Shown in pieces: positions 16,309 through 49,846 of a stretch of DNA of 64,000 bases (its first letter is position 1; the number at the start of each line of letters is the position of its first letter). Below the pieces are notes generated by a model. It saw nothing but the letters and a program-made list of their open reading frames with translations. It was not told where the DNA came from and did no database searches. Source of the DNA: a virus (Duplodnaviria; Heunggongvirae; Uroviricota; Caudoviricetes); the IMG/VR virus record IMGVR_UViG_3300008114_000011. One strand, 5' to 3'. A program made the translations under genes and the position numbers.

Positions 16309-16638
16309 ATGGCATCATCCAGAAAACGAAGACTTAAAATTAAAAAAGGTGAAACTCATAAGAGTATAGAAATTAAATATTGTAAGCCAGAAATATCTAT
16401 ACAACATACTCGTGAATATTCAAAGATATTTGTTGAATGGGAAGATAAAAACGAAAAATCAGAAGATCTACGTAGAGAAGGTAAATACCATATAGTGTCA
16501 TATACTTATAGAAATAAACAAGAGTTGGATGATAATATCCAAAAGATCTCCGACTTAAAGAATATATTCCCATATCTAAGTATAAAATCATCACTTATTA
16601 AGTATTTGAAAACTCTAAGACCATTATCATATGTTTAA
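16309..16638 (+). CDS. hypothetical basic protein
   Basis: N-term MASSRKRRLKIKKGE resembles 18100 (MSSKKRRQALRK) and 20609 (MASKKARKKLRPK). Confidence 0.5.
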   Translation: MASSRKRRLKIKKGETHKSIEIKYCKPEISIQHTREYSKIFVEWEDKNEKSEDLRREGKYHIVSYTYRNKQELDDNIQKISDLKNIFPYLSIKSSLIKYLKTLRPLSYV

Positions 16639-16870
16639 AAAGGGAGATATATTAATTGCTAAAACGAGCTCAATTTATAATAACCATAATAAATTGACTA
16701 TTGGTAAAGAATATGTAATAAAAAATACATATGGTGGTCTAAATATTTATGATGATACTTTAAAAGCTTGGTTCTTTTCTCCAGATGAATATGATATTCA
16801 TTACTATGGGAAATTCTTTTATACCAAAGAGGAGTTGAGAGATATGAGATTATCCACTTTACTTGAATAA
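16631..16870 (+). CDS. small protein with ELGI-type tail variant
   Basis: 79 aa; C-term EELRDMRLSTLLE. Confidence 0.55.
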   Translation: MFKKGDILIAKTSSIYNNHNKLTIGKEYVIKNTYGGLNIYDDTLKAWFFSPDEYDIHYYGKFFYTKEELRDMRLSTLLE

Positions 16871-16930
16871 AATTGATAATATTTTATTTATATATTTTTC
16901 TTTGAAAAGAATTTTGAAATGATAGATATT

Positions 16931-16968
16931 TCATTATTCTTCATCATTATTTTCTGGTATCATATTAC
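16931..16968. repeat. 38-nt exact repeat (partner 10911..10948), orphan gene-end fragment
   Basis: Identical to the 3' end of - strand gene 10914..11210, but here intergenic. Confidence 0.85.
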
Positions 16969-16987
16969 TATTAAACTCCAACCTGCT

Positions 16988-17560
16988 TTATACACATACT
17001 TGAAGAAGTGAACCTTTATTTAATAATACTACTAATTTACCATCAATATTTAACCAATTATTCATGATGGTTTCTTTACTCCATTCCCACGCCTCCTTCT
17101 TGTATATATTCAATAAAAAACCATATCTCTCAAAAAACGACCAGATTGAAGTGCTTACGTAAATTCGTCTATCTCTACTTTTATCATAAAAAATTATATT
17201 GTCACCTGGATTATACCTATAAAGAACACATCCAGGGTGATCCTTACTCTCAACTTTTTCCATATCAGAAAAGTTTTTATTTAACCAATCAATACATACA
17301 TTCTCTATTGGTTTATCAGTAACTATAATTCCTTTACTTGTTTTATGAGAGTAATATCCTTCCTCTTCTATCCATGATTTTAAATGGTTTATTTTATCTT
17401 CACTAGGTTCTTCACTAAATTCAAATAAACGAAACATAGATGTATCTCCGTACTTCTCATCAAAGGTAACCTCATCAACCTCTATTGGATCTAAAGCAGA
17501 TGTTACAATCCATTTAGGATCTTCTCCATCGAAGTTTTCAAATAATTTTAAGTATTTCAT
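16988..17560 (-). CDS. MKYLK-head family protein
   Basis: 190 aa; N-term MKYLKLFENFDGE. Confidence 0.6.
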   Translation of the reverse strand: MKYLKLFENFDGEDPKWIVTSALDPIEVDEVTFDEKYGDTSMFRLFEFSEEPSEDKINHLKSWIEEEGYYSHKTSKGIIVTDKPIENVCIDWLNKNFSDMEKVESKDHPGCVLYRYNPGDNIIFYDKSRDRRIYVSTSIWSFFERYGFLLNIYKKEAWEWSKETIMNNWLNIDGKLVVLLNKGSLLQVCV

Positions 17561-17690
17561 ATTTCTATATATTATTTATTAAATGATTCAGATGGATAGA
17601 TTCATTAAATTTTCTTATCTTCATAAAGTATATATTAACTTTGTTTATTCTAAAAAAATTCATATCTTTATATAAACTAAAAATAGAATT

Positions 17691-17798
17691 ATGAAATTGT
17701 CTCCATTTACCTCATTAGTAATTAGTATGATATTCACCATCATTTGTACAATGGTCGTATTATCACATATACACCAAAACTTCCCTAATTGTAAATAA
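17691..17798 (+). CDS. possible 35-aa membrane peptide (below ORF-track cutoff)
   Basis: MKLSPFTSLVISMIFTIICTMVVLSHIHQNFPNCK; hydrophobic core; fills a gap. Confidence 0.35.
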   Translation: MKLSPFTSLVISMIFTIICTMVVLSHIHQNFPNCK

Positions 17799-17800
17799 TC

Positions 17801-17914
17801 ATGAAAGAAGGAGTACAACCATGGCATATCATTTTATCAGTAGTTCCACTGGTTATTACCGTCATAATTCTAATATTCATAGTACTCAAAAGAATATCAA
17901 AAGACTTAGATTAA
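17801..17914 (+). CDS. possible 37-aa membrane peptide (below ORF-track cutoff)
   Basis: MKEGVQPWHIILSVVPLVITVIILIFIVLKRISKDLD; ends 1 nt before next ATG. Confidence 0.35.
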   Translation: MKEGVQPWHIILSVVPLVITVIILIFIVLKRISKDLD

Positions 17915-24012: not shown

Positions 24013-24177
24013 ATGATAACCTTATTCAAAAAACTATTCAATAAAGATTGTAATCACAAGTGGGAACTTGTACAAAACGATAAAAAACTAAATATCAAAG
24101 TCCACCAATGTGACAATTGCAATAAAAGAAAATTAAATGTATCAACATCATTCGGTAATGAAGTAATTGAATTATAA
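24013..24177 (+). CDS. possible 54-aa Cys/His protein (below cutoff)
   Basis: MITLFKKLFNKDCNHKWELVQNDKKLNIKVHQCDNCNKRKL... Confidence 0.4.
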   Translation: MITLFKKLFNKDCNHKWELVQNDKKLNIKVHQCDNCNKRKLNVSTSFGNEVIEL

Positions 24178-24182
24178 TCTTA

Positions 24183-24250
24183 AAGGTTAGATACAAACCT
24201 AATCAGCGTCCATCTCCATAATCCAATAGGAGGCAAATATATCTAACCTT
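24183..24250. repeat. long hairpin, 11-bp perfect arms
   Basis: AAGGTTAGATA ... TATCTAACCTT. Confidence 0.8.
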
Positions 24251-24281
24251 CAATGAAACTAAGGCATTGAGCCAAGATGCT

Positions 24282-24420
24282 GTTAGTGTGCGTTATTTAT
24301 TAGTAGAATGGCTTGAGGGCAACCCTATTATCGAATGTTTAGAGTATTGGAGTAATCTACCTAAATACGAAGGTTTTAAAATAGAACACACTATTTGTCG
24401 TATTACTAATGCACACTAAC
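24282..24420. repeat. long hairpin, 10-bp perfect outer arms plus inner arms
   Basis: GTTAGTGTGC...ATTAGTA // TACTAAT GCACACTAAC. Confidence 0.75.
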
Positions 24421-24509
24421 GTATCGGGGCTTTGCGTAGTAGTCCTTAGTAGAAACTTAAAATTAACCACGACACTTGATAGGGCTATTACACAAAGCCC
24501 TTGTTATGT
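24417..24509 (+). repeat. attC-like junction element (TAAC ... GTTATGT)
   Basis: TAACgtatcg-GGGCTTTGCGTAGTAGTCC ... GGGCTATTACACAAAGCCC-tt-GTTATGT; 19-nt arms with 3 mismatches. Confidence 0.55.
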
Positions 24510-24527
24510 GCCGTTAAATTTCACAAA

Positions 24528-24731
24528 ATGAGATACGAAGAAAAAATTATCGAACACACAGAAGAAGAAACAGACTTCTTACCACTCAAAGAAGCAATAG
24601 TGAATATCGAATTTTCTCAAGGTGACTTGATTGAAATGAGAGATATTTTAAGACAATTTAAGCCTAATTTATGGGCAAAAGGATTGTTGTCAGATATAGA
24701 AGCCACACTCGAAAAGGTGTCGGTGTATTAA
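24528..24731 (+). CDS. hypothetical small acidic protein (cassette ORF)
   Basis: ATG 24528; flanked on both sides by TAAC/GTTA hairpin elements. Confidence 0.5.
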   Translation: MRYEEKIIEHTEEETDFLPLKEAIVNIEFSQGDLIEMRDILRQFKPNLWAKGLLSDIEATLEKVSVY

Positions 24732-24813
24732 TGGCCCGTTTTGCGGTTTTGTGTTAGGCTACGAAGCCTTGGCATTGAGCGGTCGAGCAGCTTGCACAAA
24801 ACCGCTGTTATAC
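24729..24813 (+). repeat. attC-like junction element (TAAT ... GTTATAC)
   Basis: Stop TAA is part of TAATGG; arms GCGGTTTTGTG / CACAAAACCGC (11 bp perfect); then t-GTTATAC. Confidence 0.55.
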
Positions 24814-24871
24814 GCTGGCACGGGTAATTTAGTAGGAACTTAATTTGAAACACAAATAAAAATCAAAAGCA

Positions 24872-25174
24872 ATGGCAACAGTAATTTATGAAATACCAAA
24901 CTCCGTAAAGGAAATGTTTGAACAAGGCGAAAATAGTTATCGCATTATTGACTATTCAATACAGGAAATGGATAACATCCAAAGTATGCAACATTTCCTT
25001 GACTGTATAGGTGCAACAACGGATAATATCGAAACAGATGATGGAACGCAAGTAGTAGTAATTCATCCCGATTTTGACCACAAACTTGTAATTGATAGTG
25101 GTGGGTTGGGTGATTTTTATTCTCACGGTTATGACGTAACTCTCTATTCGGAAACGGTCAGTAGTGCTTGTTAA
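24872..25174 (+). CDS. hypothetical acidic protein
   Basis: 100 aa ORF. Confidence 0.5.
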   Translation: MATVIYEIPNSVKEMFEQGENSYRIIDYSIQEMDNIQSMQHFLDCIGATTDNIETDDGTQVVVIHPDFDHKLVIDSGGLGDFYSHGYDVTLYSETVSSAC

Positions 25175-25188
25175 ATATAAAAAACATC

Positions 25189-25398
25189 ATGAAAGATTAC
25201 AAGAAAGGTGATGAATTCACATCTAAAAACTCAGGGACTATTTCAACAATAATAGAGATTGCATCGGAAGATGTCCTAAACTGGTACGGATTAGAAGGTC
25301 CAGCGTTCTGGATAAATGAGAATGGAAGCTCTCAATTAAGACTTTGTACCATAGAAGGCCTCAAAGAACTATTCATTATACCCGAAGAGAAAAAATAG
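25189..25398 (+). CDS. hypothetical small protein
   Basis: ATG 25189 (MKDYKKGDEF...) preferred over TTG 25168. Confidence 0.5.
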   Translation: MKDYKKGDEFTSKNSGTISTIIEIASEDVLNWYGLEGPAFWINENGSSQLRLCTIEGLKELFIIPEEKK

Positions 25399-25474
25399 GT
25401 TTCTGACTTCGTGGAAAAATAGTGAACCTTCGTTAACTCAGGTACTAAACTTCGTTTAGAGTTTCTAAAGAAAC

Positions 25475-25500
25475 TACTAAAATCCGTGCGGATTTTAGTA
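25475..25500. repeat. 26-bp palindromic element, copy 5 (fully symmetric)
   Basis: TACTAAAATCCG-TG-CGGATTTTAGTA, 12-bp perfect arms. Confidence 0.9.
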
Positions 25501-25584
25501 TCATTAGCTTGTGATATACAGATAAAATCATTATCTTTATACTCACAGAGTGAGAGTATAAAATACTAAAACAAAATAAGAGAT

Positions 25585-26004
25585 ATGAACCTTGACACTA
25601 TAATAAAATCACAAATAATCGGATTAGAAATCGGAATAATAAACGTTATCAAAACAACCGAGTTTAACGTACACGCAATCGCAAACGAATTATCCGATAT
25701 ATTAGGTAAAGAAAATATCCAAATATTCAAAGTTGGTACCCACACAGGTATATCAATACCAGAAATCGTTAAACAATTCGATAACTTCGACTACTCTAAA
25801 CCAATCATAATCGTTACAAACAAAGACGCAATCTATAAACATATCATACCAAGAAACGGTAAAGTAATTCAATCTAAATGCCCAAAAACAGGCTTCCTAA
25901 TCCTAAACGATGTTAAATGGAAATTCACACGTTTCCAATCTACTTTCGAAGGAACAATAACTCAACTAAGAAGAGATTACCAATTAGAAACACTAATAAA
26001 TTAA
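25585..26004 (+). CDS. hypothetical protein with degenerate tail
   Basis: 139 aa; C-term QLRRDYQLETLIN. Confidence 0.55.
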   Translation: MNLDTIIKSQIIGLEIGIINVIKTTEFNVHAIANELSDILGKENIQIFKVGTHTGISIPEIVKQFDNFDYSKPIIIVTNKDAIYKHIIPRNGKVIQSKCPKTGFLILNDVKWKFTRFQSTFEGTITQLRRDYQLETLIN

Positions 26005-26014
26005 AAAATAGGTT

Positions 26015-26084
26015 AGGTGGGTAGCTCAACTGGAAAGAGCCTCTCATTAAGAGAGAGATTAAGGTTCGAATCCTGTCCCTTCTG
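26015..26084 (+). tRNA. tRNA-like element (type I size, loop ATTAAGA, possible UAA anticodon) with weak T stem
   Basis: D arm GCTC-AACTGGAAA-GAGC. Anticodon arm CTCTC-ATTAAGA-GAGAG. GGTTCGAATCC T-loop with only 3 T-stem pairs. Acceptor AGGTGGG/CCCTTCT has 1 mismatch. The helix extends 7 more bp (26008..26014 with 26084..26090). Confidence 0.45.
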
Positions 26085-26108
26085 ACCTATACTAAACTTC
26101 AGAGAAGA

Positions 26109-26134
26109 TACTAAAATCCGCACGTTTTTTAGTA
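26109..26134. repeat. 26-bp palindromic element, copy 6 (arms extended to 14 bp)
   Basis: agaagaTACTAAAATCCGCACGTTTTTTAGTAtcttct. Confidence 0.9.
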
Positions 26135-26348
26135 TCTTCTTTAGTTCTGATTGATCCGAGCCGCCCGAAATCACCGATTAAAATTGTTAAAAACCAGGTA
26201 AAAACCCAGTGGATTTTTTACTGAAAAATGACCCTCTGGAAACGTAAGCAGGTCAAGGCTTTCCGAGAGGTGTGTATATACAAATTGGTGCTGAAAATAA
26301 GGCTACTGGTAGAGAAAATGAAATGGCGATAGAGTTTACACAAAAATA

Positions 26349-26374
26349 TACTAAAAAACGACCGGATTTTAGTA
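26349..26374. repeat. 26-bp palindromic element, copy 7 (variant, inverted core)
   Basis: TACTAAAAAACGACCGGATTTTAGTA. Confidence 0.8.
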
Positions 26375-26389
26375 TGTTGAAAAATAAGG

Positions 26390-26415
26390 TACTAAAAAGT
26401 GTGCGGAATTTAGTA
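26390..26415. repeat. 26-bp palindromic element, copy 8 (degenerate)
   Basis: TACTAAAAAGTGTGCGGAATTTAGTA. Confidence 0.7.
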
Positions 26416-26571
26416 TTAACTAAAAGTGAAGTATGACTTTGAAATCGTTCCATTCAAATTAAATCAAAACTAATTCAAATTCTATAAACGTAAAATTGTT
26501 CACATTACACTATAATTTATTTTTATTATTCGTATAGAGTTCTTATATTTATTAAATCAAAACGAAAATAT

Positions 26572-26913
26572 ATGAATGTATTTGATCTAAAAAACAAAAA
26601 GGGATATTTCTTTGACGGATTTACACTTCTTTCTGGTTATATCGGTGGTGGTGAATCAGTATATAGTAGATACTTATCAGGTAAAGTTATTTATGACAAA
26701 CCAGTTTGGTTTTCCAGAACTTGGAGACACGGTTATAAATACGATAATTGGGATTTTAGTAATTTTGAATTCATACCATACGATACATTCAAAAACTTAG
26801 AAACTTATCTTAAATTCATTGAGAAAGCAACCTACAATGAAATTAAAATGTACTTCAAATTGAAAGAGGTAATGAAGTCAGAAGACTTTATAGAATGTGG
26901 GATTAAATTATAA
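26572..26913 (+). CDS. hypothetical protein
   Basis: 113 aa ORF; aromatic-rich. Confidence 0.5.
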   Translation: MNVFDLKNKKGYFFDGFTLLSGYIGGGESVYSRYLSGKVIYDKPVWFSRTWRHGYKYDNWDFSNFEFIPYDTFKNLETYLKFIEKATYNEIKMYFKLKEVMKSEDFIECGIKL

Positions 26914-27144
26914 AATAATATGAAACAGATTAATTTATTACTGGATAAGATTTCTAACATTCTTCTGAGTTAGAGGTTATAGTTTATACCAAGGGTATAG
27001 ATTTATTAAATGAGATGTATTAAAATTTTTTTACCTAACGGTAAGAAGTAGTTATTTTTTATTTATATTTGTAGAAATATCTCACTATGAAAGGACACAA
27101 TAGTTATGTGGGAATTAGGTTTATTTAATGGTAATTTATAAGTT

Positions 27145-27609
27145 ATGGAAGGTAGATTATTTAAGGTTGATGATGTTTGGAGGTTAGTCAATTCAAAGAA
27201 TTCAATAATAGCAACGAGTGATTTAGAGTATCAGAGAGCTTTTAGGTGTTATAAACTATCTAATGATAATTGTGAGTTTATATATGATTATGAAAAAATA
27301 TACAATGATTTTAAATTAAATAATCAGTATTGGTTTGCTAAACTTAAAGATGGTAGTATTTTATCTTGTGGATATGGATTAGTTGAAAACGAATTTAATG
27401 GTGATACTTGGTTTGAAATTGGTAAAATAATACCAGATGAGTTGAAAAGTATAGATGGGTATTATACTTTTGATGAGACTCATGATTTAATTAATAATAA
27501 TGGTATAAAAATTGGTAAATTAAGTGATATTGGATATAATAGTCATCCAGATGAAAATAGTTTTGTTCTGATACCTAAATCTGATATTATTGAAACTTAT
27601 TTCAAATAG
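27145..27609 (+). CDS. hypothetical protein (cassette ORF)
   Basis: 154 aa ORF followed by a TAAC...GTTATGT hairpin. Confidence 0.5.
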   Translation: MEGRLFKVDDVWRLVNSKNSIIATSDLEYQRAFRCYKLSNDNCEFIYDYEKIYNDFKLNNQYWFAKLKDGSILSCGYGLVENEFNGDTWFEIGKIIPDELKSIDGYYTFDETHDLINNNGIKIGKLSDIGYNSHPDENSFVLIPKSDIIETYFK

Positions 27610-27636
27610 CGAAGCTTTCATCAATTTTATTACTTA

Positions 27637-27687
27637 TAACGTCTGATGATAAATTATCGTTTTAATGTTGTTTATCATTTGTTATGT
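27637..27687 (+). repeat. attC-like junction element, CGTTTTAATG loop
   Basis: TAACgtctga-TGATAAA-ttatCGTTTTAATGttg-TTTATCA-ttt-GTTATGT. Confidence 0.55.
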
Positions 27688-27719
27688 GTAGGTTTTTAGT
27701 TAATTAAAAAAATATAAAT

Positions 27720-27860
27720 ATGAAAAAGATAATAGAAGAAATAGATTTTTTGTGGAAAGGTGATAGAAGTATGTTAATTACTATGTGGTTATGTATATTG
27801 TTAGCACTTGTAGTTTTAACTGAACTTGGTTTTAACATATACTTCACTTTTTTTAATTAA
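27720..27860 (+). CDS. possible 46-aa membrane peptide (cassette ORF, below cutoff)
   Basis: MKKIIEEIDFLWKGDRSMLITMWLCILLALVVLTELGFNIYFTFFN. Confidence 0.35.
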   Translation: MKKIIEEIDFLWKGDRSMLITMWLCILLALVVLTELGFNIYFTFFN

Positions 27861-27879
27861 TGTTAAGAAAACTTACACA

Positions 27880-27999
27880 TAACGGTTGAGAATATAAGCA
27901 GTTATTAACGAAAACTTAAATTGAAACACAGAACTTAATTATTAACAGACAACTTTTATTTGAAAGTAATGAAATAATTGCTTATATTTTTTGTTAGTT
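27880..27999 (+). repeat. attC-like junction element (long form)
   Basis: TAACGGTT-GAGAATATAAGCAGTTATT ... AATAATTGCTTATATTTTT-t-GTTAGTT; 19-nt arms with 3 mismatches. Confidence 0.55.
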
Positions 28000-28019
28000 T
28001 TAGTATTTAATTTTAATTC

Positions 28020-28274
28020 ATGATTATGAAAAAAACAGATTTGATTTCTTATTTAAAAATATTAGGTGGTTTATCACTTACATTTCCATTATCTCATGCG
28101 TTTTTTGCACTTGACTTTGGGTTAGTAAAAGGTGGATTTATAGCACTTGGTTTATATTTTTTGATGATGTTAATTGCAATACCAATGTTTAACTACCTTG
28201 AATATGGTAAATTTTGGTATTGGGTAAGTGATAAACATAGAGATAGTTTTGATAAAATTAAATATTGGAACTAA
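28020..28274 (+). CDS. small membrane protein (cassette ORF)
   Basis: Two hydrophobic spans LGGLSLTFPLSHAFFALDF and FIALGLYFLMMLIAIPMF; stop TAA is the TAAC of the next element. Confidence 0.55.
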   Translation: MIMKKTDLISYLKILGGLSLTFPLSHAFFALDFGLVKGGFIALGLYFLMMLIAIPMFNYLEYGKFWYWVSDKHRDSFDKIKYWN

Positions 28275-28362
28275 CGGTTGGTTGTATATGTAGGTTTTTT
28301 AATTCTAACCTTTAATATATACTATGACTTAATAAAAAACTTGCATATACACCTTGTTATAT
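28272..28362 (+). repeat. attC-like junction element with one unpaired T
   Basis: TAACGGTT-GGT[T]GTATATG ... CATATACACC-tt-GTTATAT. Confidence 0.55.
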
Positions 28363-28371
28363 ACCGTAAAA

Positions 28372-28803
28372 ATGTGGGATGGTAAAAAATTAAAATTAGA
28401 TATGAAACATAAAATAAAAACAACTCTACGAGAGTTTATTAGGGAAGAACTTGAAAAATTAGATTATTTTTCAACTAATATAGATGGACATCGTTTTGAA
28501 TTGTTGAAAGATGGTGAAGTGGTAGGTTGGACAATGTTTAGTAATGTCATTAAAAATAATAAATTCAATAATCAACCACATATAAGTTTGTGGGATTTAA
28601 TGATAAAAGAACAATATAGAAAGAAAGGATATTCTAAAATATTAATGGAAAAAGTTTTAGAATATTTAAGATACAGTGTAGATATTGTGGATTTACAGGT
28701 TATGGAACATAATAAACCTGCAGTAAATTTATATAAGAGTTTTGGATTTGAAATTTATCATAATACTGGACAAGGTGTTCTTTATATGTCAAAAAAATTT
28801 TAA
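28372..28803 (+). CDS. GNAT-family N-acetyltransferase (cassette ORF)
   Basis: Motif A-like QYRKKGYSKILMEKVLEYL; C-terminal NKPAVNLYKSFGFE; ATG 28372 preferred over TTG 28354. Confidence 0.7.
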   Translation: MWDGKKLKLDMKHKIKTTLREFIREELEKLDYFSTNIDGHRFELLKDGEVVGWTMFSNVIKNNKFNNQPHISLWDLMIKEQYRKKGYSKILMEKVLEYLRYSVDIVDLQVMEHNKPAVNLYKSFGFEIYHNTGQGVLYMSKKF

Positions 28804-28838
28804 TTTTTTTAAGAAGGGTGTAAAATTTTTATTGTATA

Positions 28839-28888
28839 TAACGGTTGAGAATATGTTTCGTTTCAATGATAAATATTCTTTGTTAGAT
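28839..28888 (+). repeat. attC-like junction element, CGTTTCAATG loop
   Basis: TAACGGTT-GAGAATAT-gttt-CGTTTCAATG-ataa-ATATTCT-tt-GTTAGAT. Confidence 0.55.
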
Positions 28889-28909
28889 TGCGTTTCAATG
28901 TGATCTAAC
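28882..28909 (+). repeat. hairpin with CGTTTCAATG loop, overlapping previous element
   Basis: GTTAGAT-tg-CGTTTCAATG-tg-ATCTAAC. Confidence 0.6.
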
Positions 28910-28968
28910 GATACTCAGATATATTTAGGTTTTCTTTTTAATATATACTTAAAAATAATAAACGAGTT

Positions 28969-29217
28969 ATGAATAAATTAACACACCTTAAAAGATTTAA
29001 CGAGTCAGAAGAAAACTTGAATATATCTGATGTTAGTGAGAGTAGATGGAATATGATTCCAGATAGATGTGAATATAATGGTAAAATATACAGAATTCTC
29101 AATATAGAACTACAAGGTGGATATTTTACACTACAAGATTTAGAAGCAGAAAGAGGTGACATTCAAGTTTTAGATGATATAGATATGGATAAATGTATTC
29201 CAGTCTATTCTCACTAA
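28969..29217 (+). CDS. MKYLK-head-like small protein (cassette ORF)
   Basis: MNKLTHLKRFNESEENLNISDVSES; leader and N-term paralogous to 29276; stop inside TAACGG. Confidence 0.5.
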   Translation: MNKLTHLKRFNESEENLNISDVSESRWNMIPDRCEYNGKIYRILNIELQGGYFTLQDLEAERGDIQVLDDIDMDKCIPVYSH

Positions 29218-29275
29218 CGGTCACAGATATATTTAGGTTTTCTTTTTAATATATAAACTAAAATAATTTACAAAG

Positions 29276-29644
29276 ATGAAAGGTAAAAATAACATACAAA
29301 GTTTCGAAGAGTTTAAAGAAAACTTGAATATATCTGATGTTAGTGAGAGTAAAACTATTGGAGATATAATAGATGATAACACTAAAGATTCTAATGGATT
29401 TTTTTGGGGTGTATTTTCTGATACTATGAATTTTTTCATTGTTGATAAGGGGTTTAATGTTATATTTGAAACACCTGCGTTTTTTAATGGAAAATGGACA
29501 AATGATGTAAAAGAAGCAATGAAAAAATATGGAATAGACGACAACAAATCAAGAATGAGAACTGATAATAACATAGAAAAATTAAAAAAATCCATTAAAC
29601 TAGAATATGATTTATGGAAAATGTATAGTGATAGAACTAAATAG
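29276..29644 (+). CDS. small protein paralogous at N-terminus to 28969 (cassette ORF)
   Basis: Shared FEEFKENLNISDVSES; shared upstream string cagatatatttaggttttctttttaatatata. Confidence 0.5.
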   Translation: MKGKNNIQSFEEFKENLNISDVSESKTIGDIIDDNTKDSNGFFWGVFSDTMNFFIVDKGFNVIFETPAFFNGKWTNDVKEAMKKYGIDDNKSRMRTDNNIEKLKKSIKLEYDLWKMYSDRTK

Positions 29645-29693
29645 TTTTATTCTCACTAATGGTTTGTGTATATGTATAGTTAAATTTTTTAAT

Positions 29694-29873
29694 ATGAAAG
29701 TTAAATGTATAAAAAACAGTATTGATTCAATGACAATACAAATGCCTTGGATAAAGGTAGGAGAAATTTATGAAGTAGTTGGTGAGCATTGGTCAAGGGA
29801 AGATTATTTTGCAGTAAAAGGTGAAGGCGGTTGTATTGCGTTTTATAGGAAGAGTTGGTTTGAAAAAATTTAA
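29694..29873 (+). CDS. MKVICI-type small protein lacking the ELGI tail
   Basis: ATG 29694: MKVKCIKNSIDSM...GEIYEVVGEHW. Confidence 0.45.
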   Translation: MKVKCIKNSIDSMTIQMPWIKVGEIYEVVGEHWSREDYFAVKGEGGCIAFYRKSWFEKI

Positions 29874-29887
29874 TTATTCATATACGC

Positions 29888-29916
29888 TGTTAGCAAATCG
29901 TTTTAATGTTTGCTAA
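29888..29916 (+). repeat. hairpin with CGTTTTAATG loop immediately upstream of the recombinase gene
   Basis: GTTAGCAAA-t-CGTTTTAATG-t-TTGCTAAC, 9-bp perfect stem. Confidence 0.6.
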
Positions 29917-29969
29917 CTAGATTATATCTCTAAATCAACATTAATAATTAATTTACAAATACTTAACAT

Positions 29970-30770
29970 ATGAAAAAGACAAATTATTACGAAATTTGTA
30001 ATCAAAAATTGAAGTATTTAAACTATTCAGATAGGACTATCAAGTCCTATCTTTATTATATTAATCAATTTTTAGAAAATACTAAAATACCACCAACCAG
30101 ATTAACAGCAACAGATTTCCAACAATATCTCAATAATTACAATTTTACCTCCACCTCACAACAAAATCAAGTCATAAACTCAATAAGATTCCTATACAAA
30201 GAATCACTTAATAAAAAATATGATAAGGTTGATTTTAAAAGACCTAGATCTGAAAAGAAACTACCAAAAGTAATTGATGGCGATTATATCAAATCTAAAC
30301 TTTCTAAAATAGAAAACCTTAAGCATAAAACTATACTTACTTTAACCTATTCAGTTGGTTTAAGAGTTTCCGAAATAATAAATCTTAAAATAGAAGATAT
30401 TGACTCCAAAAGAATGATTATTCATATTAAAAATGCTAAAGGTAAAAAAGATAGAATTGTACCACTTTCAGAAAACGTACAAAATCTAATAAAAATATAT
30501 TCAGAAAAATATACACCAAAAGAATATCTTTTTAATGGTCAATCCACAAACAAATATTCAATACAATCCTGTCAAAATATCTATAAAAAATATATTGATG
30601 AAAATTCATCTATACATACCCTCAGACACTCAGCCTTTACCAACCTCTTAGAAAATGGAACAGATCTAAGAATAATACAGAAAATAGCAGGTCACTCATC
30701 CACCAAAACAACAGAGATATATACACACGTTTCTAATCAACTTTTAAATAAAGTTAATCTACCAATTTAA
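29970..30770 (+). CDS. tyrosine recombinase, IntI/XerC/XerD-like (short, 266 aa)
   Basis: N-terminal SAM-like pattern LKYLNYSDRTIKSYLYYINQF; GLRVSEIINLK; AKGKKDRIVPLS; HTLRHSAFTNLLENGTDLRIIQKIAGHSSTKTTEIYTHV (R..HxxR..Y catalytic pattern). Confidence 0.85.
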   Translation: MKKTNYYEICNQKLKYLNYSDRTIKSYLYYINQFLENTKIPPTRLTATDFQQYLNNYNFTSTSQQNQVINSIRFLYKESLNKKYDKVDFKRPRSEKKLPKVIDGDYIKSKLSKIENLKHKTILTLTYSVGLRVSEIINLKIEDIDSKRMIIHIKNAKGKKDRIVPLSENVQNLIKIYSEKYTPKEYLFNGQSTNKYSIQSCQNIYKKYIDENSSIHTLRHSAFTNLLENGTDLRIIQKIAGHSSTKTTEIYTHVSNQLLNKVNLPI

Positions 30771-30799
30771 CTTTTCTTTGAAAAGAATTATTAAATGAT

Positions 30800-30807
30800 T
30801 ATATTTG
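30800..30807 (+). promoter_or_regulatory. -7 box TATATTTG
   Basis: TAnnTTTG 21 nt upstream of ATG 30828. Confidence 0.4.
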
Positions 30808-30827
30808 TATATAATCACACACATAAT

Positions 30828-31256
30828 ATGATAAAGTTTGTTAAGAAGTCGAGTTCGGGGTCTACAAAAGAGGTGGATTTAATATTATCTGATGTTAGTA
30901 ATTGTAAATCATTAGCATCTTCTATCTTATTAAGAAAATATTTAATGGAGATGGATGTGGATTATATAGAGAAGATGGATTTGATTAATAAACGTATTGA
31001 GTTTAGTAGAAGTTATTTAGAGAGTGTTTTATCTCGTGATGGTGATATTAAGTGTACTTATTGTGGTAAGGGAGATTTGGTTATTGAGTATGATGGGATG
31101 CGTGTCAAAGAAAGTATAAAGGCTACGATTGATCATATCGTTCCTGTATCAAGAGGAGGAGGTAGGTTTGATGTTAGTAATATAACTCCATGTTGTGGTG
31201 AGTGTAATGGTAAGAAGGGTAATAAGTCATTAGATGATTTTCTAAAGTCGATTTAA
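30828..31256 (+). CDS. HNH endonuclease
   Basis: CTYCGKG...ATIDHIVPVSRGGGRFDVSNITPCCGECNGKKGNK. Confidence 0.8.
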   Translation: MIKFVKKSSSGSTKEVDLILSDVSNCKSLASSILLRKYLMEMDVDYIEKMDLINKRIEFSRSYLESVLSRDGDIKCTYCGKGDLVIEYDGMRVKESIKATIDHIVPVSRGGGRFDVSNITPCCGECNGKKGNKSLDDFLKSI

Positions 31257-31257
31257 T

Positions 31258-31650
31258 ATGAATAAGATCACATTTTGTTTATCGGATAAGGCTGAATCAT
31301 TTTCATTTGATTTTGATTACTTTACTTTATTGGATGATGGTTCCATAACTTATAGTGGTGTAAATAGACATACTGGTTTTAGCACTAACGAGTTTTATGA
31401 TATTGAGAATATTTTTAAACAAAATGAGAGGTTTGATTTAATTGTATTGAGATGTTTTAGAATTAGAATAAATACTGTAAATAGGGTTATACATGGAGAG
31501 ATTACAAGTTTTGAGAGTTCTGGTCTTAGTAAGGTAAATTTAACTATTAAACCTAAGTTTATTTGGGATCTCGATCTTGGTGATGAGTTTTACAAACATT
31601 TACCAGCAATCAGAAGAGAAATAAAATTAAATAATATTATAGGAATATGA
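31258..31650 (+). CDS. protein with ELGI-type tail variant
   Basis: 130 aa; C-term AIRREIKLNNIIGI. Confidence 0.55.
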   Translation: MNKITFCLSDKAESFSFDFDYFTLLDDGSITYSGVNRHTGFSTNEFYDIENIFKQNERFDLIVLRCFRIRINTVNRVIHGEITSFESSGLSKVNLTIKPKFIWDLDLGDEFYKHLPAIRREIKLNNIIGI

Positions 31651-31946
31651 CATTAGAAGAATTAAGAGATCGTCCTTTAGAAGAAAAGGTAGATTATATA
31701 TGTGACTACGTTATCTCTCATGGATTGGGACCAAAGTTTAGAAATATTTCTTTCCGTGGAGTAATTGTTGAATATAAGGATATATTTGATGCTATTAGAG
31801 AAGTTAATAGGAGTTTAAGACCAGCTGAATATCATACCGATTGGTATCGATTAGGTGCTAATGTATTTAAAAATGAATTAGTTAAGGGAGTTTTAAATCA
31901 TGAATTGATATTCCCACGTATAAAAGAAGAAATATCAAAGTTATGA
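31647..31946 (+). CDS. hypothetical protein, tandem paralog A
   Basis: MTLEELRDRPLEEKVDYI...VKGVLNHELIFPRIKEEISKL. Confidence 0.6.
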   Translation: MTLEELRDRPLEEKVDYICDYVISHGLGPKFRNISFRGVIVEYKDIFDAIREVNRSLRPAEYHTDWYRLGANVFKNELVKGVLNHELIFPRIKEEISKL

Positions 31947-32242
31947 CATTAGAAGAGTTAAGAGAAAAGTCTTTAGAAGAAAAGGTGAATTATATTTTTG
32001 ATTATGTTACGTCTTATGCTCGTGAAAGAGAAGATAGGTTTAAAGATATACCTTTACGTGTATTAATTGATGAGTATGATGATATAATTGATGTTTTCAG
32101 AGAAGTTAATTATGGTCTAAGAAGATTTTGGAGTCAACCCGGATATCGAGCAAGTATTGAATATAAGAGAGAAGTAGTTAAGGGAGTTTTAAATCATGAA
32201 TTGTTATTCCCACGTATAAAAGAAGAAATATCAAAGTTATGA
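31943..32242 (+). CDS. hypothetical protein, tandem paralog B
   Basis: MTLEELREKSLEEKVNYI...VKGVLNHELLFPRIKEEISKL; same length (99 aa). Confidence 0.6.
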   Translation: MTLEELREKSLEEKVNYIFDYVTSYAREREDRFKDIPLRVLIDEYDDIIDVFREVNYGLRRFWSQPGYRASIEYKREVVKGVLNHELLFPRIKEEISKL

Positions 32243-48826: not shown

Positions 48827-48871
48827 AGGTAATAGGTTCTTATATATATAAGTATAAAAGAAGTGATACTT

Positions 48872-49846
48872 ATGTTAGAAGAATTTATAAAAAAATCGAT
48901 AGTTAAATTTGGTAATAAATTTGATTATAGTAAGTTTAATTATGTGAATGCTAAAACTAAATCTATAATCATATGCCCAGTACATAAAGATTTTTTTCAA
49001 ACACCTGATAAGCATTTACGTTCAAAATATGGATGTAAATTATGTTGGGAAATTGAAAAAAAGAAAATAAAAAGAGATTATGTAAAGGGTCCAAATATCA
49101 TTTCAAAAGATGAGTTCTTGGGTAGATGTTATGAGAAGTTTGGTGATAAATTCAAATACGATTTATCAAACTACAATGGGTTTGTTGGTGATTATATAAA
49201 AATAACTTGTTCAGAACATGGTGATTTTTATACAAAACCGAATATACATTTATTAAGTAATAACACCTATGGGTGTAAATTATGTGCTAATGATAATAGA
49301 GTACTCAATAAAACACAAACCTATGATGATGTTATAGAAAAATTATCAAATATTTATAATGATAAATATATTTATCCTGAATATAATAGAGATACTTATA
49401 TTAACAAGAGGTCGAAAATAGATATAATTTGTCCGGATCATGGGCTATTTGTTAAGAGTGTTCAAAAACACCAAAGCGGTCAATATTGTTTTGAGTGTAA
49501 AATTAAGAATATGGTTTTTAATAATATTTTAGTTGGTGGTTACACTGAGAAATTATTTGAAGATAAACCAGAATTAAAGGATAAAAAATCTAAATTATAT
49601 TATTTGAGAATAAATAATGGTGATTATTATAAAATAGGAATAACAACAGTTTCGGTTGAAAGTAGAATAAAGTCATTGAAGAGTAAATCTAAAGGTTTTA
49701 TAAAAGATGTTGAGATTTTATTTGAAAAGGAAATGTCTTTATATGAATCATATATCATGGAGAGTAAAATATTAAATGATAATATAGATAGTAGAGTTTA
49801 TAAAAAATGGAGTACTGAAATTTTCAACAAAAATGTTTTGGAATAA
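48872..49846 (+). CDS. homing-endonuclease-like protein (repeated Cys modules plus T5orf172/GIY-YIG-like C-terminal domain)
   Basis: Three repeats of FG.KF.Y....Y......I.C..HG.F......HL....GC..C; C-term LYYLRINNGDYYKIGITTVSVESRIKSLKS. Confidence 0.55.
   Translation: MLEEFIKKSIVKFGNKFDYSKFNYVNAKTKSIIICPVHKDFFQTPDKHLRSKYGCKLCWEIEKKKIKRDYVKGPNIISKDEFLGRCYEKFGDKFKYDLSNYNGFVGDYIKITCSEHGDFYTKPNIHLLSNNTYGCKLCANDNRVLNKTQTYDDVIEKLSNIYNDKYIYPEYNRDTYINKRSKIDIICPDHGLFVKSVQKHQSGQYCFECKIKNMVFNNILVGGYTEKLFEDKPELKDKKSKLYYLRINNGDYYKIGITTVSVESRIKSLKSKSKGFIKDVEILFEKEMSLYESYIMESKILNDNIDSRVYKKWSTEIFNKNVLE

Follow-up and report, generated by a model that had tools for sequence, protein, structure and literature searches.

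A probable integron-like gene-capture platform in a large phage of Bacteroidota

A documented precedent for regulatory hairpins repeated between phage genes is the PeSL, and shuffling by recombination between such repeats has been proposed for T4-type phages (PMC2839356, PMC4122927). In integrons, the I2 helix of the integrase IntI is described as the innovation that enables single-strand attC recombination (PMC7790495, PMC4792948). Cultured Polaribacter phages Freya_1 to Freya_10 carry a homolog (40% identical) of the recombinase analysed below, and this Freya integrase has been interpreted as indicating a temperate lifestyle (PMC8776804). No earlier description was found of a phage cassette platform such as the one reported here. 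The window, meaning the whole 64-kb stretch of DNA that was analysed, comes from a large phage of Bacteroidota and probably holds an integron-like gene-capture platform composed of a short recombinase, an attI-like site, and a polar cassette array. If this is true, small accessory genes would be captured, lost, exchanged between phages, and reordered. The original prediction, which was an integron-like array running into a tyrosine recombinase, was largely right about the mechanism and wrong in placing the locus within the integron family as that family is defined.

The features of the region are listed in Table 1, where a slash within a sequence marks the cassette boundary. Well-formed cassettes occupied the part between 27.04/27.64 and 29.92 kb, and an older block lay at 24.19-25.44 kb. 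The predicted cassettes and sites were real, but they did not form one continuous array: the distal block (24.2-25.4 kb) had imperfect ends, and the array was broken by 1.6-2.2 kb of other DNA with a tRNA-Leu gene and four copies of a different, unrelated hairpin repeat. This interruption also held a degenerate site (27036-27054) and is not demonstrably cassette DNA. The two family C sites (28906-29035 and 29215-29342) reached into the ORFs that come next. Nearly all positional details of the prediction were reproduced, including an ATG at each of the ten ORF starts, the quoted inverted repeats exactly at 24743/24795, 24427/24493, 28847/28873, and 28280/28344, TTGTTA or CTGTTA at all six listed 3' ends, the TAA of TAAC or TAAT as the upstream stop codon at 24729, 28272, and 29215, and the shared motifs AACTTAAWTTGAAACACA (24837 and 27913) and GGCATTGAGC (24263 and 24771). 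The motif CGTTTYAATG was found at 27658, 28859, and 28891 as given, while its fourth copy starts at 29899 rather than 29898; the last hairpin was present at 29889-29917, one base from the 29888..29916 proposed. The GNAT, HNH, and 266-aa recombinase genes were all confirmed.

Table 1. Cassettes, sites, and neighbouring genes between 24.2 and 31.3 kb of the window.
Feature	Position	Strand	Details
Most distal recognisable cassette tail	24186..24247	+	GTTAGATA ... TATCTAAC/, inverted repeat I20; R'-like and R''-like ends complementary, 46 nt apart; TAAC at 24244-24247
Cassette with 50-aa ORF 24267-24419	24248..24420	+	Inverted repeat I9 (19 nt, 84% complementary); end GTTAGTGTG (24282) complementary to CACACTAAC/ (24412-24420)
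Hairpin site D (24417-24506) and cassette with ORF 24528-24731	24417..24732	+	TAAC/GTATC-GGGGCTTTG...CAAAGCCC-TT-GTTA; ends TAAT/ (24729-24732), pairing with GTTATGTGCCG possible through G·T wobbles only; element also in L033, L046, L073
Hairpin site (24729-24810) and two-ORF cassette (24872-25174, 25168-25398)	24729..25437	+	TAAT/GG...GCGGTTTTGTG...CACAAAACCGC-T-GTTA; element common to L057; end at TAAC 25434-25437 poorly defined
Array interruption	25438..27039	+	ORF 25585-26004, tRNA-Leu(TAA) 26015-26084, ORF 26572-26913
Probable cassette with 154-aa ORF 27145-27609	27040..27640	+	5' site degenerate
Family A hairpin site (27637-27684) and cassette with 46-aa ORF 27720-27860	27637..27883	+	Covariance model match; ends GTTATGTGTA and TACACATAAC/ complementary over 10 bp; family A sites present in dozens of loci
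Family E hairpin site (27880-27996) and cassette with 84-aa membrane-like ORF 28020-28274	27880..28275	+	Stop codon inside next TAAC
Family B hairpin site (28272-28359, one unpaired T) and GNAT acetyltransferase cassette (ORF 28372-28803)	28272..28842	+	Ends GTTATATAC and GTATATAAC/ complementary
Short hairpin site (28839-28885) making 67-nt ORF-less cassette (28843-28909)	28839..28909	+	Covariance model match; ends GTTAGAT and ATCTAAC/ complementary
Family C site (28906-29035) and ORF 28969-29217	28906..29218	+	Inverted repeat I1; loop contains ORF start codon; 3' arm and GTTAGTGAG coding (NISDVSES); cassette end CTCACTAAC/
Second family C site (29215-29342) and cassette with ORF 29276-29644	29215..29660	+	Inverted repeat I2; ends CTCACTAAT/ (29652-29660)
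attI-proximal cassette with ORF 29694-29873 in loop	29661..29917	+	Family-B hairpin split by its loop; arms GTATATG (5', 29668-29674) and CATATAC (3', 29879-29885)
attI-like insertion site TAAC/TAGATTATATCTC	29914..29930	+	Conserved in relatives; indel breakpoint there (TAGATTATATC after TAAC/ to 29928)
Simple tyrosine recombinase, 266 aa	29970..30770	+	SAM_4-type N-terminal domain and catalytic domain
HNH endonuclease gene	30795..31256	+	Neighbour of recombinase gene

An attI had not been evident to the original prediction. The consensus ATTr-N3-mTAAC/TAttATATAT was nevertheless located 56 nt upstream of the recombinase gene in 83 of 87 related phage loci, and in the window the TAAC at 29914-29917 likewise begins 56 nt ahead of the recombinase ATG. 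Sequence to the left of this site was unrelated between loci, sequence to the right was conserved, and cassette indels of related phages had their breakpoint at this site; the crossover lies inside or immediately after TAAC. The proposed site would consist of a left arm (ending ATAA) and a right arm (TATAT) on either side of a central region, C-TA-N-N-A. Within 3 kb upstream of the site, hairpins of the form TAAC-5 nt-stem...stem-2 nt-GTTA were enriched approximately 25-fold, with no enrichment downstream. Their density was 1.37-1.39/kb in the first 2 kb upstream, dropped to approximately 0.13/kb at 8-10 kb, and was 0.03-0.1/kb downstream. When hairpin arms were searched for at TAACG sites of the related loci without requiring GTTA, an arm of at least 8 nt was present at 42% of the sites upstream of the recombinase and 1.5% of those downstream, and GTTA followed the arm in 93% and 0% of the arm-bearing sites, respectively.

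The elements were more than a chance pattern. When a covariance model was derived solely from elements found in other phages, it matched two sites of the window, at 28833-28891 (40.2 bits, E 3e-7) and at 27631-27690 (39.7 bits, E 4e-7), both on the + strand only. There was no further significant match in the whole 64 kb, that at 27030-27060 being weak (13.9 bits), and the model was strand-specific (39.7 vs 10.5 bits). Compensatory changes were observed at all 11 stem pairs, with 98.7% of cells paired as against 28-52% when the partner was slid, and 132 different 8-nt arm starts were present among 282 unique sites. The register of the variable stem is fixed, at 5 nt from TAAC and 2 nt from GTTA, and an ATTG is conserved 5 nt upstream of TAAC. 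In 114 of 287 cassettes, the first 6 nt after GTTA and the last 6 nt before the following TAAC showed perfect complementarity (control, 2 of 326). Stem covariation, complementary cassette ends, and polar enrichment thus upheld the view that these sites are conserved in structure and variable in sequence. Folding of the + strand was indicated by isolated stem mismatches, since G·T pairs exceeded A·C pairs 225 to 4 (91 to 4 after de-duplication); because the mRNA has the sequence of this same strand, RNA structure could account for both the bias and the hairpins. Hairpin free energies were only modestly better than those of shuffles (z -0.6 to -3.0).

Near-identical related phages differed by single cassettes placed exactly at TAAC/. 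Locus L003 equalled L001 plus one cassette at ...TAAC/TAGATT, L015 equalled L017 plus one 797-nt cassette, and L017 was 100% identical to L012/L016 for 2651 nt from the T of TAAC and unrelated upstream. The cassette adjoining attI differed in 5 of 12 groups with recombinase genes at least 96% identical. L011 and L065 share a 477-nt cassette at 100% identity, with unrelated DNA on either side of it; a 956-nt cassette was found at attI in L033/L034 and 2381 nt from attI in L046, and a 271-nt cassette was at attI in L022 and internal in L033 and L046. In L021/L022, the left boundary of one common block was not at a site. The Freya phages differed by nested insertions, one alternative cassette, one internal 902-nt deletion, and one terminal cassette; all of these junctions were at xxAAC/ beside the recombinase gene, although no obvious attC-like hairpin was found at the Freya sites. 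The exact indels, whole-cassette transfer, and reordering supported the core idea of the original prediction. Comparison of these genomes showed that the mobile unit starts immediately behind one TAAC, ends with the following one, and contains the hairpin body, GTTA, a short leader, the ORF, and N5-TAAC. For the array in the window itself no variant was found, other contigs of the same phage being identical, and cassette mobility was for this reason demonstrated in relatives only. A crossover point had been absent from the original interpretation; the indels place it at the 5' TAAC and not at the 3' GTTA.

The recombinase was placed in the XerA/IntI clade with archaeal XerA at least as close as IntI. 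The residues R-K-H-R-H-Y were conserved, and relatives at least 76% identical formed more than 120 clusters (90% identity), nearly all of 266 aa and a few of 267-296 aa; the protein is under strong constraint. The I2 insertion specific to integron IntI was absent, as had been suspected, and the scores were under the cut-offs of both integron-integrase models, and a place in the defined integron family is thus not supported. The absence of the I2 helix counts against an integron-like single-strand reading. The + strand had the 5/2 spacer geometry (TAAC/GGnnG-stem...stem-nT-GTTA) that L153 and L131, whose attC arrays look canonical, show on the bottom strand of those arrays, and the intI-attI-array geometry of integrons was matched once the phage + strand was read as the integron bottom strand. 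A co-oriented, downstream recombinase had been listed as a caveat; the orientation was correct but is not odd on this reading, and only the cassette ORFs are inverted relative to integrons. These ORFs are carried by the strand of the recombinogenic type, which corresponds to the integron bottom strand, so that each of them, preceded by its own site and leader, is read in the direction of attI and the recombinase.

The + strand site may be written as N5-(A)TAAC/G(G)TT(G)-variable stem-loop-stem'-TT-GTTA(T)-N5'. In the proposed mechanism, the two ends of a circular cassette would pair into a 10-bp stem, and the circularised site would resemble an Xer/attC site with a stem, an unpaired spacer of 5 nt versus 2 nt, and a second stem. 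The circle would recombine with attI and insert there beside the recombinase gene, and recombination between two cassette sites would release a cassette as a circle. The substrate would be the folded + strand, with a single strand exchanged at AA/C and the junction resolved by replication, as in integron attC x attI recombination and CTX-phage ssDNA x dif recombination. The neighbouring recombinase most likely recombines the attC-like sites; we infer its catalysis of the cassette events from adjacency and conservation, and the sites presumably act as folded single strands. Around the crossover, attI and cassette sites have only approximately 5 nt (aTAAC) in common, which rules out homologous recombination and is an argument against classical two-strand exchange.

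An Xer-like action of the recombinase on double-stranded core sites (left arm ATTG-N4-ATAA, central region, right arm) within the same platform, the hairpin symmetry serving cruciform extrusion, expression, or an accessory factor, is unlikely. The plain XerA-like enzyme without an I2 helix, the resemblance of the attI-like site to a dif-type site, and the conserved ATTG would all fit it. However, to the right of TAAC no central region is common to attI and the cassette sites, the stem covaries in fixed register to TAAC and GTTA, mismatches are strand-asymmetric, and the geometry is that of the bottom strand of canonical-looking attC sites. Slightly less likely still is PeSL-type shuffling, in which the hairpins would be regulatory repeats (terminator and/or promoter, or translational control) between early genes, turnover would occur by homologous or illegitimate recombination between repeats, and the recombinase would be an unrelated neighbour. 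Regulation of this kind would explain why site sequence families recur many times per array, why sites lie directly upstream of ORFs with conserved leaders, and why family C encloses a start codon; the G·T bias fits RNA folding, and PeSLs have documented precedent (PMC2839356, PMC4122927). It accounts poorly for attI insertions that join sequences with so little in common, for strictly polar arrays ending at the conserved site near the recombinase gene, and for an identical cassette between phages despite differing neighbouring sites. Complementary cassette ends are not required by regulation, and no terminator-like motif coincided with any element.

An ordinary role of the protein as integrase or dimer resolvase is very improbable; attI would then be an attP or dif-like site, and the variable DNA beside it would have built up by aberrant excision or by other processes at a hot spot. 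Phage integration is within the capacity of simple tyrosine recombinases, the Brujita integrase was among the structural matches, and the temperate interpretation of the Freya integrase (PMC8776804) points the same way. Against this, copies of the recombinase clade more than 49% identical were missing from a set representing 185,579 species of bacteria and archaea, bar one 2-kb fragment, and there was consequently no prophage sign. Aberrant excision, moreover, would not give serial units with a site, complementary ends, and co-oriented ORFs (229 on + and 7 on -), or internal single-cassette deletion and reordering.

On the integron-like platform reading, two observations concern the immediate surroundings of the attI-like site and the recombinase gene. 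The mini-hairpin at 29889-29917 (GTTAGCAAA-TCGTTTTAATG-TTTGCTAAC/) had a folding z of -4.25, and a tail of the form GTTAn5-TCGTTTTAATG-n5TAAC also adjoined attI in L018, L030, L032, and L037. The HNH gene was not a conserved partner in the recombinase family; the Freya phages have an HNH gene in the same position.

The window was AT-rich (~28% G+C) and densely packed with small plus-strand ORFs. It encodes inteins, endonucleases of the GIY-YIG and HNH types, an NAPRTase, one tRNA and a 574-aa protein (56025-57749) with a C-terminal sorting domain for type-IX secretion (Por_Secre_tail). This content fits a large phage of Bacteroidota, and the sorting-domain protein points to a Bacteroidota host. 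Contigs encoding an identical recombinase were obtained from freshwater metagenomes and were up to 160 kb long. A blastn search of 23.8-31.4 kb against GenBank phages gave no DNA-level match, an Rfam scan of 22-32 kb returned the tRNA only and no attC-type family, and searches of the window's cassette ORFs with PHROGs and Pfam returned nothing besides the GNAT acetyltransferase, all others being ORFans. The elements from which the original prediction had proposed an integron-like cassette array, namely the ORF starts, the inverted repeats, the 3' TTGTTA ends, the overlaps with stop codons and the internal motifs, were all located, with two positions one base off. The 266-aa recombinase ORF was found to carry Phage_int_SAM_4 and Phage_integrase domains, the gene after it encodes the expected HNH endonuclease, and the GNAT gene lies at 28372-28803. 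Folding with DNA parameters gave the anticipated hairpin for every element, with modest stability (z -0.6 to -3.0), and the plus strand was the more stable in 7/8 window elements. The layout of the array is given in the table, where a cassette is the unit from just after one TAAC to the next and site families are recurrent hairpin sequences. In the two family C sites the ORF begins within the loop and continues through the 3' arm.

Organization of the cassette array and adjoining genes in the window
Feature	Position	Strand	Remarks
Older-looking block	24186-25437		About four cassettes, less regular, higher G+C
Stretch between the two blocks	25438-27039		Two ORFs, tRNA-Leu, different hairpin repeat
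Probable additional cassette	27040-27640	+	5' site degenerate
Well-formed cassette	27641-27883	+	
Well-formed cassette	27884-28275	+	
Well-formed cassette	28276-28842	+	GNAT
Well-formed cassette	28843-28909	+	No ORF
Well-formed cassette	28910-29218	+	Site family C (28906-29035)
Well-formed cassette	29219-29660	+	Site family C (29215-29342)
Well-formed cassette	29661-29917	+	Last before attI; entire 59-aa ORF inside loop of family-B hairpin
attI (insertion site)	29914-29930	+	Followed by recombinase gene
Recombinase gene	29970-30770	+	266 aa
HNH gene	30795-31256		

A second, unrelated hairpin repeat, TACTAAAATCCGCACGTTTTTTAGTA (TACTAAAATCCGCACG...), was present in eight copies between small ORFs in both orientations (20246, 22737, 23036, 23948, 25475, 26109, 26359 and 26400), with 14 matches on both strands combined where 0.24 would be expected by chance; the interruption of the cassette array contains four of the copies, and no exact copy was found in IMG/VR. 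The tRNA-Leu (anticodon TAA; 26015-26084), which lies between the two cassette blocks, scored 30.3 bits in Rfam against a threshold of 29.

The family of the recombinase is very large and shows tight conservation, all of the best 120 clusters (90% identity) being at least 76% identical to the window's protein. Nearly all members are 266 aa long, and R132, K157, H216, R219, H242 and Y251 are invariant. Scores remained below cut-off with XerA_Arch (NCBIfam, "site-specific tyrosine recombinase/integron integrase"; 185 bits versus 220), the IntI model TIGR02249 (158 versus 265, matched in two pieces), NF011946 (96 versus 435), XerD (148 versus 330) and XerC (145 versus 335). Sequence matches in the PDB were led by XerA of P. 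abyssi (136 bits), followed by VchIntIA (109 bits), and these two tied for best in fold comparison of an AlphaFold model that was moderate (pLDDT 69) because the alignment lacks diversity and was taken for fold class only. The suspected lack of the IntI-specific insertion was borne out by alignment to VchIntIA (2A3V), in which query residues 171-207 span IntI residues 174-258; the ~48 residues missing are the IntI-specific region between the beta-hairpin and the HxxR motif, where the model predicts a single helix leading to the HxxR helix. By alignment and model, the additional domain typical of integron integrases, the I2 helix region near patch III, is absent. Nor does the enzyme fit the Xer dimer resolvases: it does not exceed the XerA, XerC or XerD cut-offs, and its gene is tied to an array of many sites, compared with one dif site per replicon for Xer resolvases. 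The HNH gene was considered as a partner and was dropped because no HNH gene lies downstream of the recombinase in any other locus of the family.

Related phage loci were assembled from 80 IMG/VR loci on contigs of 4-362 kb, with recombinases 58-83% identical to the window's, together with contigs of an 86% relative. The original prediction had seen no evident attI; a conserved attI-like site was nevertheless found in the window and in 83 of 87 loci, where TAAC^TA..ATATAT (the caret marking the inferred crossover; fuller form ATTr-N3-mTAAC^TAttATATAT) starts 56 nt upstream of the recombinase ATG. Sequence to the right of this TAAC is conserved between loci, whereas that to the left is unrelated save for ATT(G) 5-7 nt upstream. 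Sites were counted relative to attI with a simple scan (TAAC, exact stem of at least 7 bp, GTTA), which gave densities of 1.37-1.39 per kb in the first 2 kb upstream, then 0.88, 0.59, 0.39 and 0.41 per kb in the four kilobases beyond that. Between 8 and 10 kb upstream the density was down to ~0.13 per kb, and downstream of attI it was 0.03-0.1 per kb. A second test did not presuppose GTTA and asked whether TAACG was followed, 3-8 nt after TAAC, by the start of a hairpin arm 8 nt or longer. Such an arm was present at 148/354 TAACG sites in the 3 kb upstream, and GTTA lay within 4 nt of the 3' arm in 137 of these 148; downstream the arm occurred at 3/202 sites and was followed by GTTA in none, and other 4-mers used as a control had hairpins in 3-6% of cases. 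Contigs ended within 3 kb upstream of the recombinase gene in 32 of the 80 IMG/VR loci versus ~8 within 3 kb downstream, which fits repeats and population heterogeneity in the array.

The layout TAAC-5 nt-stem...stem-2 nt-GTTA was shared by 282 unique sites, whose lengths cluster at ~45, 85 and 125 nt and whose arms begin with 132 different 8-nt sequences. The 5' spacer, most commonly GGTTG, was 5 nt long in 188 sites, and the 3' spacer, most commonly TT, was 2 nt long in 151. Covariation was assessed by aligning 42 trimmed sites that differ in their stems and come from loci other than the window. In this alignment 98.7% of cells were paired, compared with 28-52% when the partner was slid by 1-3 columns, compensatory changes occurred at all 11 stem pairs, and cells changed on both sides numbered 169 versus 49.5 ± 5.1 in shuffles. 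Stem pairs 8-11, which were free of the selection criterion, were still paired in 38-41 of the 42 sequences, and one T:A pair was nearly invariant, suggesting a recognised L-box. As in attC sites, therefore, structure is conserved while sequence varies, as documented by layout, covariation and a geometry shared with the bacterial arrays described below. A covariance model made from these 42 sites and run on the 64 kb found 28833-28891 (40.2 bits) and 27631-27690 (39.7 bits), both on the plus strand, and nothing else of significance, because it is unable to span long loops; the reverse strand of 27631-27690 scored 10.5 bits. Isolated stem mismatches were G·T in 225 cases versus A·C in 4 (91 versus 4 once collapsed by arm and position). 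This asymmetry and the strand specificity of the covariance model favour folding of the plus strand; the former could also reflect RNA folding, since the plus strand is the mRNA or coding strand. A looser hairpin scan, in which G·T pairs, mismatches and loops as long as 300 nt were tolerated, was discarded as far too permissive. A motif TCGTTT(T/C)AATG, seen at 27658, 28859, 28891 and 29899 in the window and beside attI in L018, L030, L032 and L037, occurs either in the loop of short hairpins or as the sole filler between GTTA-N5 and N5'-TAAC in the tails of ORF-less cassettes.

The proposal that differences between relatives would begin and end at the TAAC/GTTA boundaries held in that cassette-sized differences were found, with the junction at the 5' TAAC. 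Locus L003 differs from L001 by one extra insert directly upstream of the recombinase. At attI, L001 reads attacacaTAAC^tagattatatc and L003 reads attacacaTAAC^gtctgatgataaa...tttatcatttGTTAtacaca...ORF (177 aa)...tgtgtaTAAC^tagattatatc. Likewise, L015 equals L017 plus a 797-nt unit, ...GGAGCATAAC^GGTTGGGTGTATGAG...CTTATACACCTTGTTATGTACA...ORF...TTGTACATAAC^TATCATATATC. The sole sequence repeated by these inserts is (a)TAAC, which places the crossover within TAAC or immediately behind it, where the hairpin has its 5' end, and in both the two ends of the unit are complementary over 10 bp. In 114 of 287 cassettes the 6 nt after GTTA were perfectly complementary to the 6 nt preceding the next TAAC, and 181 cassettes had 4 or more contiguous paired bases; the corresponding values for a control with the hairpin's own 5' flank were 2/326 and 14/326. 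In L017 and L012/L016, 2651 nt are 100% identical starting from the T of TAAC, with nothing in common upstream, and the attI-proximal cassette differed in 5 of 12 groups with recombinase genes at least 96% identical. Ends of BLAST blocks fell on TAAC in 5/16 cases on the right and 10/22 on the left; as informative blocks were few, whole cassettes, taken as predicted from TAAC^ to TAAC^, were looked for in other loci instead. A 477-nt cassette was 100% identical in L011 and L065, with unrelated flanks on both sides, in phages whose recombinases share 78% and 66% identity with that of the window. A 956-nt cassette lies at attI in L033/L034 and 2381 nt from it in L046, a block of three to four other cassettes being kept in order, and a 271-nt cassette is at attI in L022 and internal in L033 and L046. 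As read from the aligned loci, these patterns bear the marks of cassettes being captured at attI, excised, reordered and passed between phages; from them we infer the roles of the recombinase and of the folded strand, and the exact position of cleavage. No variant of the window's own array was found among contigs with an identical recombinase, which carry the same array, and the one metagenome contig retrieved by an exact-pattern scan was arranged identically; for a 99%-identical protein (P0002) the gene map hints at different neighbours. On these comparative grounds, mobility is demonstrated in the relatives rather than in the window's own lineage.

A cultured counterpart was identified by protein-level search of GenBank phages, in which "integrases" 40% identical to the window's recombinase were found in Polaribacter phages Freya_1 to Freya_10. 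Each of these genes is followed by an HNH gene, as in the window, and the isolates come from one host, with genome sizes between 43,978 and 48,920 bp. In the array regions that were compared, Freya_1 reads TTGTTTACAAC^ACCCCTATAAC at attI, the region is progressively longer in Freya_2 and Freya_5, Freya_6 has a different 442-nt unit at attI, Freya_8 is missing one internal 902-nt unit, and Freya_9 differs from Freya_10 only by the missing attI-proximal unit. All junctions fall on sites of the form ...(T)TAC(C)AAC^ or GCTAAC^, and no clear attC-like hairpins were seen at the Freya sites. The paper describing these phages takes the integrase as a sign of a possible temperate lifestyle, and a term search of its text gave no mention of a variable region or indels (PMC8776804).

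Cassettes were small (modal size 200-400 nt, median ORF 90 aa), and the longest ORF was on the plus strand in 229 of 236 and on the minus strand in 7. Only ~10 of 150 cassette ORFs from related loci had Pfam matches, which include three DNA methyltransferases, a PARP-type ADP-ribosyltransferase, YopX and an RNA ligase. Otherwise unrelated proteins of family C cassettes share an N-terminal leader of ~25 aa, MK..KHI..FNE..ENLNISDVS(D/E)S (window 28969-29043 and 29276-29350; also L010, L011, L019, L026, L040, L055 and L056). The 3' arm of the recombination site and its GTTAG supply the final codons of this leader, and the loop-encoded part is conserved as protein and not as DNA; the leader is reminiscent of the capsid-targeting one that internal proteins of T4 have in common. 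Within the HNH gene, the 5' part (30812-30897) contains TAAT...ATATTATCTGATGTTAGT, which encodes ILSDVSN and is very similar to the 3' arm plus GTTAGT found in family C sites; the HNH gene may have originated as a cassette. Immediately downstream of the recombinase and HNH genes, two tandem overlapping genes (31647-31946 and 31943-32242) encode 99-aa paralogues, MTLEELR..EEKV.YI.DYV...VKGVLNHELIFPRIKEEISKL.

Promoter early stem-loops (PeSLs) of T4-type phages (PMC2839356, PMC4122927) resemble the present elements in that conserved stem-loops flank small unknown ORFs in hyperplastic regions of large lytic phages and indels between close relatives start and end at them. Shuffling there is attributed to homologous recombination between regulatory repeats, with no associated recombinase, attI, polarity or AAC/GTT core. 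Such homology-driven shuffling cannot explain that junctions in the phage arrays share only ~5 nt of identity, those at attI being without homology, that the arrays are strictly polar toward a conserved site beside the recombinase gene, or that cassette ends are complementary. The window elements also give no sign of an early promoter paired with a terminator stem-loop: no terminator-like motif was found at any of them, and promoter-like matches, scanned for with the sigma-70 consensus and not with a Bacteroidota-type one, were at chance level.

A duplex Xer-like reaction at the sites is possible and is disfavoured. Duplex sites are used in the pdif modules of Acinetobacter plasmids, which are likewise discrete gene modules bounded by Xer-type sites in differing contexts; those, however, have XerC/XerD sites in inverted pairs, depend on host Xer proteins and show neither array polarity nor an insertion site. 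Against a duplex reaction in the phage arrays, attI and cassette sites have no central region in common, the stems covary with a fixed register, and the mismatches are asymmetric between strands. An attP or prophage origin is disfavoured since representatives of 185,579 species of bacteria and archaea yielded no close copy of the phage recombinase. Recombination of a folded single strand, the reading we prefer, has a parallel in CTX-phage and IMEX, where a Xer-type enzyme without the IntI insertion acts on a single strand folded so as to imitate a duplex site whose centre is unpaired, and a single strand exchange yields a junction resolved by replication. There, by contrast, the enzymes are host XerC/D, the whole phage genome integrates at dif with one site per element, and neither a cassette array nor a dedicated recombinase is present. 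The action of XerCD on the folded CTX-phage strand means that Xer-type enzymes without I2 can use hairpins.

Of the integron reading made originally, the attC-like sites and the cassette array stood, and an attI was added; the IntI insertion, whose lack had been suspected, proved absent, and the ORF strand opposite. In common with integrons, especially sedentary chromosomal ones, the phage loci have a tyrosine recombinase gene adjoining the primary insertion site, a polar array of small, mostly single-ORF cassettes, AAC...GTT cores with paired but variable stems and an unpaired spacer, crossover at the AAC of a bottom-strand-type strand, excision and reordering of cassettes with complementary ends, and homogeneous site families per array, like VCR-type repeats. 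As beside integron integrase genes, attI is the site used for insertion, natural single-cassette insertions lying exactly there. The phage loci differ in that their recombinase lacks I2 and scores under the IntI model cut-offs, the cassettes are smaller, and the system resides in large, virulent-looking phage genomes. Integron cassettes consist of an ORF followed by attC and are read away from attI from Pc; phage ORFs are instead preceded by their site, lie on the opposite strand relative to site polarity and face attI and the recombinase, with no Pc-type arrangement apparent. The crossover at the 5' TAAC and the 5/2 geometry shared with two bacterial loci indicate that the phage plus strand corresponds to the integron bottom strand; when flipped, the locus shows the classical layout of a leftward recombinase, attI, and cassettes with sites at the far end.

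The two bacterial loci are from a Desulfitobacterium sp. Sab5 chromosome (L131, 6001-12795) and an Ignavibacteriota MAG (L153, 5956-12822). Each has a comparably short recombinase (~40% identical), after which comes a canonical-looking array of 6-8 ORF-attC cassettes, whose attC bottom strand, TAAC^GGCCG-stem...stem-GT-GTTA, has the same geometry as the phage sites on the plus strand. These recombinases also lack the IntI insertion, matching TIGR02249 below cut-off in two pieces and XerA_Arch just above cut-off, and the arrays would presumably be called CALINs by standard tools. Bacterial relatives (at most 49% identity) mostly lack upstream TAAC...GTTA hairpins, which sets the phage clade apart. 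Many short relatives among L096-L175 (40-49% identity, mostly Bacteroidota) sit at contig ends, the contigs often stopping a few hundred bases downstream of the recombinase gene, which suggests multi-copy elements. In L096 and L097, a ...TAAC^G(T/C)CCAT.. motif ~55 nt upstream of the ATG resembles the phage attI.

Integrons are regarded as bacterial, and recently also archaeal, devices defined by IntI. In our estimate it is about evenly balanced whether the phage loci represent a widespread undescribed class of I2-less integrons in Bacteroidota phages, in which a XerA-like recombinase joins folded single-stranded attC-like hairpins to attI. If so, the class would extend over large and small Bacteroidota phages, from freshwater metagenomes to cultured marine Polaribacter phages, and the short bacterial relatives beside attC arrays (L131, L153) would join it. 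Virulent phages could then take up, drop, rearrange and swap small accessory genes, which probably serve host takeover or anti-defence and some of which carry a shared N-terminal leader. The IntI I2 helix would not be required for hairpin recombination, and integron-type gene capture would predate IntI or have arisen more than once. A phage-encoded platform would offer a testable mechanism for the turnover of ORFan-rich hyperplastic regions, a long-standing puzzle, and would account for assemblies breaking just upstream of the recombinase gene. The idea is open to direct test because the cultured Freya phages are already polymorphic, and possible uses include the compact 266-aa enzyme and 45-nt sites as tools and the cassettes as a pool of candidate anti-defence genes. 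In the integron literature, the I2 helix is held to have enabled the shift to single-strand substrates (PMC7790495, PMC4792948), so an enzyme without it bears on the evolution of single-strand hairpin recombination. A literature search of incomplete coverage found no report of a phage encoding its own recombinase, attI and cassette platform, and none of integron-like systems that lack I2. What has been reported in phages is PeSLs (PMC2839356, PMC4122927) and, on the integron side, only bacterial-type attC clusters and integron fragments (PMC9892861). In the latter, by Qi et al. (2023), attC-type sites are reported in virulent phages, one a Polaribacter phage, and orphan DNA methyltransferases are among the cassette genes, as here. 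Those sites, in contrast, are of bacterial type, found with IntegronFinder, tested with bacterial IntI1 and read as acquired integron pieces, with no phage recombinase, attI or cassette dynamics described.

Judging from its domains, the phage genome is rich in selfish elements. The regions concerned (59137-61158 on the minus strand, 53754-54587 and 48863-49846) contain intein splicing and LAGLIDADG domains in two adjacent ORFs, a GIY-YIG/NUMOD1 homing endonuclease and a weak T5orf172 match below cut-off. In L001-L004, a TnpB/Cas12f-like OrfB_IS605 gene (~16636-17814, minus strand) adjoins phoH a few kb downstream of the recombinase.
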